Shown: positions 3,187 to 20,700 of the stretch, one piece after another | Layout: each line of letters begins with the position of its first letter | How positions within the stretch are numbered: position 1 is the first letter of the stretch | Source of the DNA: a plasmid | Length of the DNA: 64,000 nt | Direction: 5' to 3' (one strand) | Sequence record: NZ_CP018188.1 | Program-made: the position numbers and the translations under genes | Notes under the pieces: generated by a model | Told to the model about the DNA's origin: nothing | The model's input: the letters and a program-made list of their open reading frames with translations, nothing else | Database searches by the model: none

Positions 3187-4620
3187 TACTAAGATTAGTA
3201 GTGAAGAAATCTCCGACGGGAGAGAGTACTCACTACTTTTTATTTGTGTTAAAGTAGTGGTGTCTTGTAAAGTCGTGGCTTCTTTTGACGCTAGACGTCG
3301 AGTATTGAAAATGACATCACTAAAATAAGGAATCATTTAAGACAAAGAGGTAATGTCATGTGTGCAGTATTTGGAATTAATGTGAGTAAAACAAGTTCTG
3401 AGGTGGCAATTTTAGTCAACGGTGAGAAGGTTTATGGCTATACTATACCTAATGACATTGTCGGATTTTCTCGTTTACTGGAAGATCTAAAGACCGTGAG
3501 CAACCTCGTAATTATTTTCGAAGCTACTGGTGTCTACTCTCGCCGACTTCAGGCCTTTCTAGAAGAAGACAGCTATGACTATACACGTCTTAATCCTTTA
3601 GCAACTTGATGGATTACGAGTTCGGAAAACCGATAAGATTGATGCAGAGAAACTAGCTTCGTCACAATTCGTCTTAAACCGTAAGCCAACTTACGTTCAA
3701 GAAGAAGTCTATCAAAACTTGCATGATCTTAGTCGATTCTACCAAAATCTGACAGAGGATATCGTAAGGACGAAGAATAGGCTGCACAAAGTTCTTCAAG
3801 TCGCCTTCCCAGAAATCTACTATCTACTCCTACAGGTGAGCAATATTGGAATCTCATGTCCATCTTCCCAACCAAGCATTGGGTGCTAAAATTATCAGAA
3901 GTTGAGTTGAAAGAGACTATTCGCCAGTCAACCTCTAAACGTATTTCAGAGAACAGAGTAGGTAACTTGGCTGAAAAGTTAGTTGGACTGGCAAAGCAAT
4001 CTTATTCTGCCATTTCAAAAACCTCTCCTATGATAGAAGAGGTTAAGTATAATGCACAGGAACTTATAAGATTGACAAACCGTCGAGAACAAGTTTTAGA
4101 ACAGTTGATAGAGTTAGCTAAAACTCTACCTGAATATGAGTTTCTTCTCTCTATTCTTGGTATCGCAGAAACAACGGCTACAAGCGTTATTGGCGAATTA
4201 GGAAACATTCGTTGCTTTAAGTCTGCTAATCAAATCAACACTTTTATCGGTATTGATCTCAAACACTATGAATCGGGAGATTTCCTAGGTCAAGAGCATA
4301 TCACTAAGCGTGGGAATCCTTATGCCAGAAAAATCTTGTTCAAGTGCATTTACAACATCGCTTCAGCTAGCCATACCAATCCCTGCCATATCGCTAACTT
4401 TTATGAGAAACGAAAAAGACAATCGACAATAGCTTCAACTAAGCCACATACGATTACCTCTATACACCGCCTTATTAGGAAAATGTATCACCTCATTACG
4501 CATAACAAACTTTACGATTACTCTTTGACCCAAAATCGATAAGGCTGTCTATGCCGTATTATTGTAACACCTTGTTTCAAAAAATACCAGATGAGGTGTT
4601 TTTTTAGCATGCCCTTTTAT
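3187..4620 (+). mobile_element. IS110-family insertion sequence, copy A (degenerate)
   Basis: Its ends were set by a near-identical inverted match to 19185-20700, with both flank blocks (3187-3340 vs 20560-20700, and 4480-4620 vs 19190-19330) aligning as reverse complements. No terminal inverted repeats, which is typical of IS110. Confidence 0.65.
3358..4542 (+). pseudogene. IS110-family transposase split by frameshift or stop (ORFs 3358-3609 and 3856-4542)
   Basis: N-terminal piece MCAVFGINVSKTSSEVAILVNGEKV...EATGVYSRRL is the DEDD/RuvC-like domain. C-terminal piece carries GIAETTATSVIGELGNIRCFKSANQINTFIGIDLKHYESG, an IS110 C-terminal signature. Confidence 0.7.
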
Positions 4621-4639
4621 GGATCAAAAACTCTAAGCA

Positions 4640-6090
4640 GGCTTAGCCTACTAACTCATGACAGAAAAGAAAGTTCGGCTTATAATGAAGGTGAACAATA
4701 CCAATCCGTTGTCTTTAATAGGGCTTTGCCTAGCCTGTATCAAAAACTGGATGAACAAGAGTCATGAGATAACTCGAATATGCCTTGAGCATGAAAATAA
4801 AATTACTAATAGCCTCTTGTTCTATTGTTCAATAGTTAACAGGAGGTTTTTGTAATGGAAGTTATGATTGAAACTTGTTGTGGAATTGATGTCCACCAAA
4901 AGTCTATCGTTTGTTGTATTCTAGATGGTCCACTAGAAAGCAATAAACCTAAAAAGATTCAGAAAAAATTTGGTACAACAACTATAGCTCTCCAAAACGC
5001 CTTAGATTGGTTATTGGAAAATCACGTCACACATGTCTTTTTTGAAAGCACTGGCCAATATTGGGTACCACTCTTTAATATATTCTCAGACTCAGAACTC
5101 AATTTGATATTAGCTAACCCCCAACATATCAAGAATGTGCCTGGTCGAAAAACAGACATGAAAGATGCCGAATGGATTGCACAGCTCGGACGTTGTGGAC
5201 TTATTGAGCCATCTTACATTCCAAGCCCTGAAGTGATGCAGTTACGTTTACTCACTCGTAGGTTACGTTCTTACAAACAACGTCAAACTCAAATAAAGAA
5301 TGAGATTCATAACCTCTTACAACGTGCTAATATCAAACTAACCAGCTATCTTTCTGATATCTTCTCTAAGACAGGACAGTCTCTTTTAACGCTCTTTATC
5401 AATGGGGAACTCATTGATTATGACAATGTGACAGCTTGTATTCACAAGCATGTCAAAGCAAGTCCCGAAGAATTAATGGAGGCCATGAATGGGAAGTTGT
5501 CACTGGAGGATCGATTTCTCTTGGAGCAAAGCCTAGAAGAATATCAATTGTATCAAAAACTCATGAATAAATTAAGGAGTGAAATAATAGCTTATATCGA
5601 AAAGGAGTTTCCCTGAAGAAAATAGATTACTTCAAATGATTCCTGGTGTGAGTGAAACTTGTGCAGCCACTATTTTAGCTGAGATTGGACCAGATGTGAA
5701 GGCTTTTCAATCAGACGCACACTTAGCTTCTTGGGCTGGGCTCTGCCCAGGATCTTATGAAAGTGCTGGCATTAAAAAATCCTCACATATCACGCAAGGA
5801 AATCGATATATCAAACAGGCTTTGACCATGTCGGGATTGATTGCGGCTCACTCTAAAGACAATGCGTTTTCATCTTTTTATAGCAAAATTTCCCAAAGAG
5901 GAAGTAAGATGAAAGCCGTCATTGCTTGCGCACATAAGCTGCTTCGTATCATTTACAAAATTCTCGCAACACACCAAGAATACGACAAAGAAAAAGTGCT
6001 AGGACTGAGGCAACAGTTCTAACACCGAAAATTTAAAAAATCTCAATTACAGTATAGCACAAGAAGAGTTTTTTTGCGCTATTTTTAATG
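4640..6090 (+). mobile_element. second, distinct IS110-family element (approximate bounds)
   Basis: Encloses a split transposase gene. Its boundaries are not defined by repeats. Confidence 0.45.
4855..6022 (+). pseudogene. IS110-family transposase, interrupted (ORFs 4855-5616 and 5636-6022)
   Basis: MEVMIETCCGIDVHQKSIVCCILDG (DEDD N-terminus) and GVSETCAATILAEIGPDVKAFQSDAHLASWAGLCPGSYESAGIK (IS110 C-terminal region) lie 19 nt apart in different frames. Confidence 0.7.
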
Positions 6091-6149
6091 TTTTTTTCAA
6101 ATAAAAAGACAGTATCCTCAGAATAGCTACTGTCTTATCTGTTTTATTA

Positions 6150-6195
6150 CTTAAAGCCTTGATAGACTTGACTAAGGGTAGAAAAGAGCCATTTT
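6150..6195. repeat. solo ISL3-type terminal repeat remnant (ttaaagccttgatagacttgac...ggtagaaaagagcc)
   Basis: Matches the right end of the intact ISL3 at 15166-15205 and the reverse-complement copies at 18528-18570 and 19085-19127. Confidence 0.5.
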
Positions 6196-18530: not shown

Positions 18531-18570
18531 GACTCTTTTTACCATATACCAAGTTTATCAAGTCTTTAAG
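18528..18570. repeat. ISL3 right-end repeat remnant, reverse-complement orientation
   Basis: gactctttttaccatataccaagtttatcaagtctttaag is similar to the reverse complement of 15166-15205. Confidence 0.4.
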
Positions 18571-19084
18571 AATAAATGAGACAAGACAGTAGCTATTCTG
18601 AGGTTGCAGACTTATTTTTAAAACTTATTGATCCATAAAAGGGTATACGAATATAACACTCCATCTGGTATGTTTTGAAACTAAAATATATCAAAGCCAT
18701 ATAATAGAATCCAACTATAAAAGCCTGACCCCTTCCATTGCGAATAAGAGATGTTTTTCATAATGTTTTTAGTGAACATACCACGAGCCTCAATAACCAT
18801 AAAAGATTTTTTATAGTCATTATAAAACATAAAAACAGACTCTATTCAGGGGAACATAAATCCTTGAAAAATATTGCAAATTTTTAATCATCTTGATATA
18901 ATCACAATTGTAGGCTTACACACCATACAATAAATAATTCAATCTTCCCTTAGTCTCTAATTAACTTCTATTACATAGAGGCTTTATACTCACATTATTC
19001 GTCACATAAAAATTTTATGTGAGTGCCTACTACTAACTAGGGTATCTCCCTAGTTTTTTGTGCTTTCCTTTGAAATATTTTATT

Positions 19085-19127
19085 TGGCTCCTTTCTACCA
19101 TTTATCAAGTCTATCAAGGCTTTAAGT
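19085..19127. repeat. ISL3 right-end repeat remnant, reverse-complement orientation
   Basis: ggctcctttctaccatttatcaagtctatcaaggctttaagt. It is followed by a hairpin gataagacagtagctattctgaggttactgtcttat that also occurs at 18582-18620 and in reverse complement at 6105-6140. Confidence 0.45.
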
Positions 19128-19184
19128 AAAAAAAGAGATAAGACAGTAGCTATTCTGAGGTTACTGTCTTATTTTTAACACTTT

Positions 19185-20700
19185 TTGATCCATAAAAGGG
19201 CATGCTAAAAAACACCTCATCTGGTATTTTTTGAAACAAGGTGTTACCCTAATACGGCATAGACAGCCTTATCGATTTTGGGCCAAAGAGTAATCGTCAA
19301 GTTTGTTATGCGTAATGAGGTAAAGCATTGTCTGAATGAGACGATGTATAGAGGCAATCGTATGTGGCTTAGTTGAAGCTATTATCGATTGTCTTTTTCG
19401 TTTCTCATAAAAGTTAGCGATATGGCAGGGATTAGTATGACTAGCTGAAGCGATGTTATGAATGCACTTGTACAGAATTTTTCTTGCATAAGGATTCCCA
19501 CGCTTAGTGATGTGTTCCTTGGCGAGAAAGTTCCCGATTCATAGTGTCTCAGGTCAATACCAATAAAAGCGTTGATTTGATTGGTAGACTGAAAGCGACG
19601 AATATCTTCCAATTCGCCAATGATAGATGTCGCTGTGGTTTCTGCGATGCCAGGAATTGACCATAAGATGTCATACTCTTGTAAAGGCTGAACTAGAGCT
19701 ACCATGTTGTTTAAGACAACTTGTCTGCGTTCAGAAAGACGAAGCAATTCTTGAGCATAGTAACGGACCTCTTCCATCATGGGAGAGGTTTTCTTGACCG
19801 CACAATAAGACCTATTAGCTAGTTCGACGAGTTTATCAGTTAGGTAAGCAATACGCTTTTCAGAGATACGTTTGGAGGTAGATTGGCGGATAATTTCACA
19901 CAAGTCACTTTGAGAAAGGCTTTATACAAACTCTTTGCATGGAAAAGCCATCAGTAAGTTCCAATATTGCTCTCCAGTTGGTGTGGATAAGAAATTTTCC
20001 AATTGAGGAAAAGTGACTTGTAGAACCTTGTGCAGACGGTTTTTAGCTCGAACAAGATCTTCATTCATATTTTGATAGAAACGGCTTAAATCACGTAGAT
20101 GTTGATAAACTTCTTGCTGCACGTAAGTTGGTTTACGATTGTGCACAAGCTAAGAATTAGCCAACTTTTCAGCGTCAATTTTATCTGTTTTACGAACTCA
20201 CAAACTGTTCAATTGCTTCTTAGCTTCCAGTGGATTTAGCTGTGTGTAAGCGTAACTATATTCCTCAAGGAAGGCTTGAAGACGTCGAGAATAGACGCCT
20301 GTAGCCTCAAATATAATCTCAGGGCTATGAACAGTTTTCAAGTCGCCCAACAGGCGATTGAATCCAATGGCATCATTGAGTATGGTGTAGCCATGAACCT
20401 TTTCACCGTTGACTAAAATTGCCACCTCAGAACTTGTTTTACTTACATCAATTCCAAATACTGCACGCATGACATTACCTCTTTTGTCTTGAATGATTCC
20501 TTATTTTAGTGATGTCCTTTTCAATACTCGACGTCTAGCATCCAACATACTTTGATAATATTCCATCTAAAACAGGTATCTTGCCAGTTTGTCAAGCGAC
20601 ATCTAACGCCATTGAACCCTACGACTTTACAAGACACCACTACTTTAACATAAAGAAAAAGTAGTGAGTACTCTCTCCCGTCGGAGATTTCTTCACTACT
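19185..20700 (-). mobile_element. IS110-family insertion sequence, copy B (inverted relative to copy A at 3187-4620)
   Basis: Reverse-complement identity with copy A across both flanking regions and the transposase fragments. Confidence 0.65.
19382..20470 (-). pseudogene. IS110-family transposase, fragmented (ORFs 20198-20470, 19922-20146, 19382-19903)
   Basis: MRAVFGIDVSKTSSEVAILVNGEKVHGY... and ...SIPGIAETTATSIIGELEDIRRFQSTNQINAFIGIDLRHYESG are paralogous to the copy A fragments. Confidence 0.7.

Follow-up and report, generated by a model that had tools for sequence, protein, structure and literature searches.

A decayed inverted pair of IS110-family elements at two fixed sites around varying cargo in a plasmid resembling Streptococcus salivarius-type megaplasmids

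Two related insertion sequences (IS) in inverted orientation around a block of accessory genes raise the question of whether the block moves or flips as a unit. The question is posed here by a 64,000-nucleotide stretch of plasmid DNA (record NZ_CP018188.1; this whole stretch is hereafter the window), in which two IS110-family elements enclose, among other genes, a cluster for a ribosomally synthesized and post-translationally modified peptide (RiPP). An earlier note on this DNA had taken the two copies for near-identical and the enclosed segment for a composite or invertible module that also looked like an acquisition unit. We found that the region is an ordinary IS-marked variable region and not a composite transposon. 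We consider it probable (roughly 0.75) that the pair is old, that its members decayed independently at fixed sites, and that the cargo beside them has been exchanged mainly by homologous recombination.

Anatomy and decay of the inverted pair

The IS110-family parts of the region, by position in the window, are:

3183..4630, + strand: copy A, body, short-left-end subtype (left non-coding end 3183-3357; transposase pseudogene 3358-4542), from Pfam matches on split open reading frames (ORFs)
4631..6102, + strand: element C, a third IS110-family element (Pfam DEDD_Tnp_IS110 and Transposase_20, split ORF)
6103..6190, + strand: distal part of the right end of copy A, a terminator-like hairpin and an ISL3-like terminus ending in ...CTTGACTAAGGGTAGAAAAGAGCC
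18531..18681, - strand: right-end-only remnant of another IS110 of the lineage of copies A and B, from inverted and direct repeat matches (right-end motif at 18628)
19086..20714, - strand: copy B, long-left-end subtype (right end 19086-19268; transposase pseudogene 19269-20470; left end 20471-20714); 19182-20714 when paired with copy A

The inverted pair (A at 3183-4630 on the + strand, B at 19182-20714 on the - strand) is real and lies about where the earlier note had placed it. Its observation that both transposases are broken was also borne out. The domains PF01548 (DEDD_Tnp_IS110) and PF02371 (Transposase_20) were found in both copies, in each case spread across several ORFs. Compared with intact relatives of 400 amino acids (aa), copy A carries deletions of 11 and 7 nucleotides (nt) that put residues ~85-160 out of frame, and copy B carries in-frame stops at residues 91, 107, and 183 together with one frameshift near residue 313. 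Intact 400-aa transposases of the A/B lineage are present in two of the related loci described below, L003 and L006. Both transposase genes of the pair are dead, and the pair is inert in the window.

The claim that the copies are near-identical, ends included, did not hold. A repeat search between 3183-4630 and 19182-20715 recovered inverted pieces of 311 nt (92% identity), 253 nt (76%), 118 nt (90%), and 63 nt (94%). In a MAFFT alignment of the homologous core, 1117 columns were identical, 330 mismatched, and 89 gapped, giving an identity of 77% of aligned bases, or 73% with gaps counted; blastn yielded 75.4% over 1376 nt. The likeness is mosaic: the first 118 nt are ~90-91% identical and the last ~310 nt 92%, single stretches of 100 columns near the ends reach 95-96%, and the interior falls to 53-71% per 100 columns. 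The longest exact runs measure 59, 49, and 41 nt. A genuine inverted pair whose ends match at 90-96%, with exact runs of 59 and 49 nt, would favor a composite transposon, or else a segment inverted through homologous recombination of the flanking copies. The overall identity of 77% and the diverged interior argue against both. Such an identity is too low for efficient homologous inversion, which distinguishes the pair from known IS-flanked invertible segments.

Relative to copy B, the 5′ non-coding end of copy A is also shorter by 68 nt (REINTERPRETED), a gap located between GCTAGACGTCG direct repeats. The two copies belong to different subtypes and are not one same element, and no further copy of the A/B type lies inside the 64-kb window. 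The distal right end of copy A (6103-6190) matches the right end of copy B (19085-19176) at 90%. It is uninterrupted with the body of copy A in loci L006-L013 and is split off here by element C.

The outer ends of the pair, at 3183 and 20714, are both left ends, and both right ends point inward. Excision of IS110-type elements requires a left and a right end in direct order (PMC11208160), so two outer left ends would give no left-end/right-end circle junction from the outer boundaries. Dead enzymes, two outward left ends, and fixed sites (below) make composite transposition mechanistically unlikely. The pair is reminiscent of Tn10/Tn5-type composites and IS-flanked invertible segments in that two related, inverted IS flank accessory genes. 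It differs from the former in having no working transposase, the wrong outer ends for IS110 chemistry, and no movement of the whole unit.

Two fixed sites and their varying contents

Three proteins of the window (salR, an 87-aa protein, and a ThiF-like protein) were looked up in public assemblies. The window resembles S. salivarius-type megaplasmids of rep_cluster_199, and about 30 related plasmid, chromosome, and metagenome contigs carried IS110 at one or both of two sites, with left ends outward. Site 1 lies directly after the 87-aa backbone gene, and site 2 lies directly after salR, in the salivaricin A locus. An IS110 element followed salR in 10 of 10 sampled contexts (including pSsal-NU10, CP020439, and the chromosomes CP177180.1 and CP066093.1), and the 87-aa gene was followed by one, at the identical junction, in 10 of 10 as well. 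Since the same two sites are occupied in all sampled relatives, two chromosome records among them, we regard the pair as old.

Seven sequences (six related contigs and the window) carried both sites together, always with left ends outward and 6.7-17.5 kb apart. In its minimal form the pair encloses only ~5 kb with the cI/cro-like module. The major components of the interval in the window are:

7066..13664, mostly - strand: RiPP-type cluster (Pfam and NCBIfam matches)
13739..15206, + strand: intact ISL3 element (Pfam Zn_ribbon_ISL3, HTH_Tnp_ISL3, DDE_Tnp_ISL3)
15207..15225, + strand: 19-nt leftover of a 3′-truncated site-1 IS110, ACAATGTATTACCTCATTG
15428..18087, mixed strands: conserved backbone module, including the cI/cro-like genes (Pfam, Rfam)

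The DNA joined to the two sites differs between relatives, and the amount enclosed ranges from 5 to 15 kb or more. Beyond the salR-side IS110 we found salivaricin 9, another lantibiotic locus, an ABC system, or the cI/cro module, and the site-1 IS110 led into the cro/cI module, into the RiPP cluster, or into a lanthipeptide cluster of the LanKC kind (class III/IV). The ThiF-like protein occurred in at least eight metagenome contigs of human oral and gut origin, always in the order RiPP-ISL3-cro/cI, with the RiPP cluster flanked in each by an IS110 right end on one side and the same ISL3 on the other. Nothing related to this cluster was found among the PLSDB plasmids.

The remaining parts of the region are collinear with known plasmids. 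In pSsal-NU10 and CP020439, the counterpart of window 1-2954 (98.6% identical in CP020439) is followed by an IS110 at exactly the junction of the window. This site-1 element is a 3′-truncated B-type copy (positions 22329-23503 of L001, our pSsal-NU10 locus) and directly joins the counterpart of window 15207-18136, which is 94% identical, collinear, and in the same orientation in both plasmids. To the right of copy B lies the salivaricin A locus, with 98-99% identity to pSsal-NU10 and CP020439, and copy B itself is 93-96% identical to the B-type copies at the same salR junction there. The identity to these plasmids is 93-99% over the backbone, the salivaricin A locus, and the cI/cro module taken together. 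The cI/cro module has one orientation in all contigs compared and is conserved syntenic backbone. The copies of the pair are diverged, old paralogs, as the earlier note's own alternative had it, and the block between them is syntenic in part only, namely the cI/cro part.

The contents vary and the sites stay fixed, which is the opposite of a unit moving as a block. The idea of an acquisition unit survives insofar as this is an interval where bacteriocin and RiPP clusters differ between plasmids; that of a composite module fails on the dead transposases, the two outer left ends, and the lack of movement as a whole. Megaplasmids of S. salivarius (pSsal-K12, pSsal-NU10, pSAL813, and others) have been described as receptacles for bacteriocin loci (PMC10086258). 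The window agrees with this description in that differing bacteriocin loci occupy one region in different plasmids, and differs in carrying a ThiF/SagB-like RiPP cluster absent from PLSDB plasmids, as well as element C. Taken by itself the region matters little, being an IS-marked variable region of the kind expected on bacteriocin megaplasmids. What the comparison adds is a map of the receptacle: the stretch from the PezAT-side backbone to the salivaricin A locus would form a fixed frame with two IS110 sites in which bacteriocin and RiPP clusters are swapped. This frame may be new, as may the ISL3-like right end and ISL3-directed guide treated below; both would be variations within known kinds.

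We also tabulated, for every fetched locus, which left flank was joined via IS110 to which right flank. An inverted combination (the left flank of site 1 joined to the inner flank of site 2, or vice versa) was absent from the ~30 related contigs, and the orientation was constant, with no inverted block, in all seven sequences carrying both sites. For the left flank of site 1, the only partners were the RiPP-side flank, element C, the truncated form beside cro/cI, and, in locus L074, a right flank that belongs to a different IS110 copy in pSsal-NU10. The left flank of site 2 was joined only to cI-side or lantibiotic-side flanks. The comparison with relatives that the earlier note had proposed thus found both sites constantly occupied and the content variable, and no inverted form. 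Inversion of the window block by homologous recombination is unsupported, no inverted isomer having appeared in any contig linking IS110 left and right flanks, and is further disfavored by the 23% divergence of the copies. No second orientation of the kind known from IS-flanked invertible segments was seen in these contigs.

Several arrangements point to exchange at the IS110 copies. First, for two direct copies, the pSsal-NU10 copy at L001 12002 and the site-1 copy, the left flanks ATACTTGAA and CATATAGTA and the right flanks GAGAAGACC... and GAGCCATTTTC... occur in all four combinations. Second, the segment 18682-19077 is missing from L010, where it was deleted by recombination between the 18531-18681 remnant and the right end of copy B. 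These are probably marks of homologous exchange at IS110 copies. Third, in scaffold_242 (L007 and L074) two direct IS110 copies flank a LanKC cluster of ~10 kb that is located upstream of the RiPP cluster, and each of these copies is preceded by an identical 94-nt left flank, an arrangement that fits Campbell-type homologous integration.

Based on these findings, we postulate that two IS110 insertions, old and at fixed sites of the S. salivarius-type bacteriocin megaplasmid family, decayed independently. The pair would originally have stood around only the ~5 kb cI/cro-like module, and the interval would since have been enlarged and altered by three routes. In the first, IS110 and ISL3 copies would serve as portable homology through which bacteriocin and RiPP clusters are gained, swapped, or deleted by homologous recombination. 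In the window, a segment made up of a full-length IS110 with its right end, the IS30 remnant, the RiPP cluster, and ISL3 would have replaced most of the truncated site-1 IS110. We count in favor of such a replacement that the ISL3 has no target-site duplication (8-nt flanks gaatgaag and acaatgta) and that the 19-nt leftover of a truncated IS110 stands immediately to its right. The leftover ACAATGTATTACCTCATTG matches the stretch of the intact IS110 transposase gene that encodes TMYYLI. The second route would be fresh guide-directed insertion of other IS110 elements, such as element C, and the third would consist of small deletions between repeated IS110 right ends.

Element C sits inside the right end of copy A and has no DNA similarity to copies A and B. 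It is missing from all eight RiPP-bearing relatives, and its empty site is visible in the metagenome contig L012, which equals the window minus element C and is 100% identical to it over positions 1-4630. Its target, ATCAAAAA^AGACA, is also its target at a separate location in pSAL813, where a copy (L014 2501-3971) is 99.5% identical. Element C inserted recently and in a sequence-specific manner. A one-base frameshift near 5612 (…KEFP*) divides its transposase, and the pSAL813 copy has this frameshift as well, even though the insertion in the window is recent; either the element was mobilized in trans or the frameshift is bypassed.

Several points weigh against the postulated history. No intermediate or donor of the RiPP segment was found: the cluster has no relative in PLSDB from which a donor could be identified, and all RiPP-bearing contigs share the same two junctions, so we infer the double-crossover step. 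Metagenome contigs may collapse or mis-join repeats, and a minority inverted isomer would be invisible in consensus assemblies. The GAAA|GAGCC junctions of the two copies may stem from a half-match made by the recombinase. Finally, inversion is plausible in plasmids like that of L006, where each site holds an intact B-type copy and the two share 98.8% identity. A description as a near-identical inverted pair would have been right for that plasmid; in the window, the flanking copies no longer function and have diverged too far to cause much rearrangement.

Left-end guides, ISL3-like right ends, and alternative explanations

A 29-nt left-end pattern of the A/B lineage, scanned over one genome per species, gave 46 loci across many Streptococcus species. 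The left ends have a long form of ~248 nt and a short form of ~179 nt, to which copy A belongs; the short form equals the long one minus 68 nt between GCTAGACGTCG repeats. In the predicted fold of the long left end, an invariant first stem-loop would be followed by a second stem-loop with a variable internal loop. RNAalifold found 0 compensatory pairs among 12 left ends with invariant stems, so the predicted fold is one of energy. Because the stems never vary, covariation speaks neither for nor against this fold, and we relied instead on covariation between guide and flank. The 3′ side of the loop (N6 + AAC) was identical to six left-flank bases plus AAC in 10 of 16 independent flank/loop pairs, an agreement that 0 of 2000 shuffles reached, and the complement of the 5′ side fits the right junctions GAGCC(C), AAAAGAAG, AAAAGAG, and AAAAGC. 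The variable loop behaves like the target loop of a bridge RNA as described in PMC11208160. A search of Rfam 15 over 2900-21000 (E <= 1) recovered no bridge-RNA family, its only hits being RatA, Srn266, and a sub-threshold rli38.

By their domains, left-end guide, and sequence-specific insertion, the elements belong to the IS110 group; the position of the guide in the left end places the A/B lineage there rather than in the IS1111 group. As in IS621 and other members of this group (Durrant et al. 2024, PMC11208160), a DEDD domain precedes a Transposase_20 domain, and a long non-coding left end has two predicted stem-loops with a loop that covaries with the target. Unlike in IS621-type elements, the window copies are pseudogenes, copy A is without the guide half, and the variable stem-loop follows the invariant one. 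Further differences are a right end of ~170 nt whose last 59 nt are ISL3-like and the absence of a matching Rfam 15 model. Collectively, the streptococcal lineage offers a natural series for the study of RNA-guided recombinases, with guide/target pairs, guide-less derivatives, and ISL3-nested copies.

The guides of the pair do not account for its left junctions. Copy B retains the guide TTGACAAAC, whose TTGACA has no match to its own left flank GAAATAG at site 2 and fits a site inside ISL3 right ends. Copy A lost the target-guide half (3′ half) of the second stem-loop with the 68 nt. At site 1, the guide of relatives with a B-type copy does not match the left flank ATAGTA. The right junctions of both copies, GAAA|GAGCC, fit the complement of the intact B-type loop 5′ side (GGGCTCT), which has diverged to GGGTTCA in copy B and reads GGCTTCT in copy A. 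Given the guide mismatches and the guide-less copy A, the left junctions seen today do not reflect simple guide-directed insertion by the elements now in place. Either exchange with other copies has replaced the resident element, or the junctions were made by one-sided guide matches like those of a 2026 preprint (Hu et al., 10.64898/2026.08.14.744561). Replacement by exchange is possible because site 1 is polymorphic, with an A-type copy in the window and an intact B-type copy in L006.

The 68-nt guide-half deletion recurs at different sites in several Streptococcus species (L022, L024/L033, L023, L001 at 12002 and 22329, and window 3183-3357); guide-less elements seem to arise repeatedly or to spread. 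The termini AACATACTAAG... and ...AATGGTAGAAAA have no inverted match, so the lineage has no long terminal inverted repeats. Close to the right tip is a perfect TTGACA, which would stand 17 nt from a TAAGAT in the left end if the ends were joined with a 2-nt shared core; the two could then pair as a junction promoter in the circle. Copy B of the window has TTGATA in place of this right-end TTGACA.

Every complete copy of the lineage ends in ...CTTGACAAATGGTAGAAAA, including those at guide-matched non-ISL3 sites and a collapsed repeat contig of 1630 nt from S. raffinosi. The A/B subtype has a long right end of ~170 nt, the final 59 nt of which share 92% identity with the right terminus of an ISL3. 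The segments 6133-6190, 19086-19143, and 18531-18681, tried as independent ISL3 remnants, turned out to be this constant right end, because all complete copies carry the terminus even at non-ISL3 sites. The solo ISL3 end and ISL3-end remnants of the earlier note are in fact right ends of the IS110 lineage, and ISL3-like ends beside IS110 copies should not be annotated as ISL3 remnants.

Of the 46 lineage copies, 10 are nested ~82 nt from the tip of an ISL3 right end, behind a complete ISL3 transposase gene; their hosts are ISL3 elements of at least two types in several streptococci. The ISL3 target TTGACATCGAGCTC fits the B-type guide pair TTGACA / GAGCCC, and the ISL3 of the window contains it ~82 nt from its right tip. 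Elements of the IS1111 group offer a parallel, since IS4321 and IS5075 insert into the inverted repeats of the Tn21 family. Likewise, IS1111-attC elements insert into integron attC sites (cited in PMC11208160). The present lineage would resemble this group in that its guide targets the end of another mobile element, and it differs in that the host element is ISL3.

The lineage's right boundary falls before or after GAGCC, no clean empty site having been found among the relatives. CP020429 (L061) was considered as an empty site 2 and rejected as not clean: salR is followed by 'ctgtgaaata|aaaagaagg...', and a different backbone block stands downstream. In L061 880-3200 there is no IS110 after salR; ~300 unmatched nt lead to a block with Y-family polymerase, XerS, and DUF2971 genes whose relative orientation is opposite to that in pSsal-NU10 (L001 2478-4327), and one breakpoint of this rearrangement falls at the left-end boundary of IS110 site 2. 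At another locus of CP020429 (L003 ~4395-4675), an intact IS110 is nested beside an ISL3 scrap of ~35 nt and has a 139-nt tandem duplication of its right end, with a repeat unit from ...AATACCAGATGAGG to ...GGTAGAAAA. A second kind of IS110-ISL3 junction, unlike the -82 site, was seen at L001 13440-13630 and in L074 (right flank GAGAAGACCTATCA), where the right end abuts a 3′ coding fragment of an ISL3 transposase (…AAAAGAGAAGACCTAT…); in L001 it belongs to the A-type copy at 12002.

Among the alternative explanations, one that we hold to be unlikely is that the site-1 IS110 seeded an RNA-guided expanded locus, in a lineage that captured the last ~75 nt of its ISL3 target. Under it, the recombinase could have captured whole bacteriocin and RiPP clusters by acting on half-matches like GAAA|GAGCC. 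If true, the capture of an ISL3 tip would explain both the ISL3-like right end and the guide TTGACA-NN-GAGCyC into ISL3 right ends.

A related explanation, in our estimate decidedly improbable, has the recombinase add cargo stepwise downstream of the site-1 element by way of half-match guide sites. It draws on the constant insertion site, which among the sequences with both sites is followed by 6.7, 16.1, or 17.5 kb of DNA, and on the RiPP segment, which starts exactly at the IS110 right-end tip (6190|6191). It also draws on the one-sided match, in which the right junctions GAAA|GAGCC fit the B-type loop and the left flanks are unmatched. Such downstream growth and half-match boundaries have been described for expanded IS110 loci (Hu et al., 2026 preprint, 10.64898/2026.08.14.744561). 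The window may share with those loci a conserved site, DNA accumulating downstream, recurrent insertion at a locus already occupied, and guide matches on one side of the boundaries; it differs in its Gram-positive host, its bacteriocin and RiPP cargo, the ISL3 at its boundaries, and flanks that are best fitted by homologous exchange. Three observations favor exchange over stepwise addition: the RiPP segment is bounded on its right by the left end of an ISL3 and not by an IS110 donor-like sequence, the LanKC arrangement of scaffold_242 has its 94-nt flank duplicated along with the IS110, and the four flank combinations are those that reciprocal homologous exchange yields.

Very doubtful is the view that the RiPP cluster was the passenger of an ISL3 composite, that is, an ISL3 with a nested IS110, the RiPP cluster, and a second ISL3, the left ISL3 being later lost up to the IS110 left end. 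The cluster does lie between an ISL3-type right terminus (6133-6190) and the intact ISL3 (13739-15206), in direct orientation; lineage copies are nested 82 nt inside complete ISL3 elements of several streptococci, and the guide TTGACA of copy B fits that site. The ISL3-like terminus accompanies the lineage at non-ISL3 sites too, as in the S. raffinosi contig, and need not mark a former ISL3. In addition, no ISL3 body or left end was found upstream of copy A, and no target-site duplication surrounds any candidate unit.

The explanation that raised our question, a composite transposon or a flipping segment, fares worst and is highly improbable: the L006 copies are intact and alike, and IS110-type recombinases can experimentally invert DNA between suitably placed sites (PMC11208160), yet the transposases here are dead, copy A has no target-guide half, the two outer left ends form no circle junction by the mechanism of that study, the sites are fixed while the cargo varies, and the ~30 contigs hold no inverted junctions and a cI/cro orientation that is constant relative to both flanks.

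Cargo genes and further observations

The contents that the earlier note had listed for the interval, namely a second IS110 element (4631-6102, split ORF), an IS30 remnant, a RiPP cluster, an intact ISL3 with its transposase, and a cI/cro-like module, were all recovered. Their parts are:

6504..6866, - strand: IS30-family transposase remnant, C-terminal 120 aa (NCBIfam transpos_IS30, E = 4.4e-32)
7277-9070 and 9054-10862, - strand: two ABC transporter genes of the RiPP cluster
10896-11885, - strand: ThiF-like gene of the RiPP cluster
within 7066..13664, - strand: other RiPP cluster genes, comprising small ORFs, a 288-aa gene, and a 221-aa SagB-like gene (weak hit)
13545-13664, + strand: putative RiPP precursor of 39 aa, Cys-rich, MADEVISLGLDVEEVSLSYLQTQGVVAGSLLSCCGCGDE (read from the sequence)
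13860-15116: ISL3 transposase, 418 aa
15428-16156, - strand: 242-aa gene without a Pfam or NCBIfam match
16200-16388, - strand: cro-like HTH gene
16740-17534, + strand: cI/LexA-like S24 repressor gene
17810-18087: RatA-like type I toxin-antitoxin region (Rfam RF01776, 51 bits against a gathering score of 49)

The IS30 remnant covers profile positions 162-267 of 267, and a tblastn search with the IS30 transposase of L074 matched it at E = 1.7e-16. The 288-aa gene of the RiPP cluster had no family match. The guanine-cytosine content of the cluster is 26-29%, compared with 33% in the adjoining cI/cro region.

The ISL3 element has the termini GGCTCT... and ...AGAGCC. A 6/8 match between its flanks was rejected as a target-site duplication, as it requires a 1-nt offset. 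The Rfam family Srn266 ('Streptococcus RNA 266') matches 13739-13848 with 93.8 bits, and this match is the left terminal region of the ISL3; Srn266 therefore appears to describe an IS end.

The 242-aa protein is kept beside the cro-like gene in every relative, with a length of 234 aa in some. At 17810-18087, the + strand carries the RatA-like antitoxin RNA and the - strand an overlapping, weak BsrG-like match; the annotation of related plasmids has a 'putative holin-like toxin' at the counterpart. By appearance this is a conserved type I toxin-antitoxin pair adjoining the cI-like repressor gene. Just upstream of site 1, positions 2953-3097 (- strand) match the small RNA rli38 with 48 bits, one bit below the Rfam gathering score. 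The homology between plasmid variants breaks at 3089, within this match, with L007 and NZ_MN480763 sharing only the sequence from 3089 onward.

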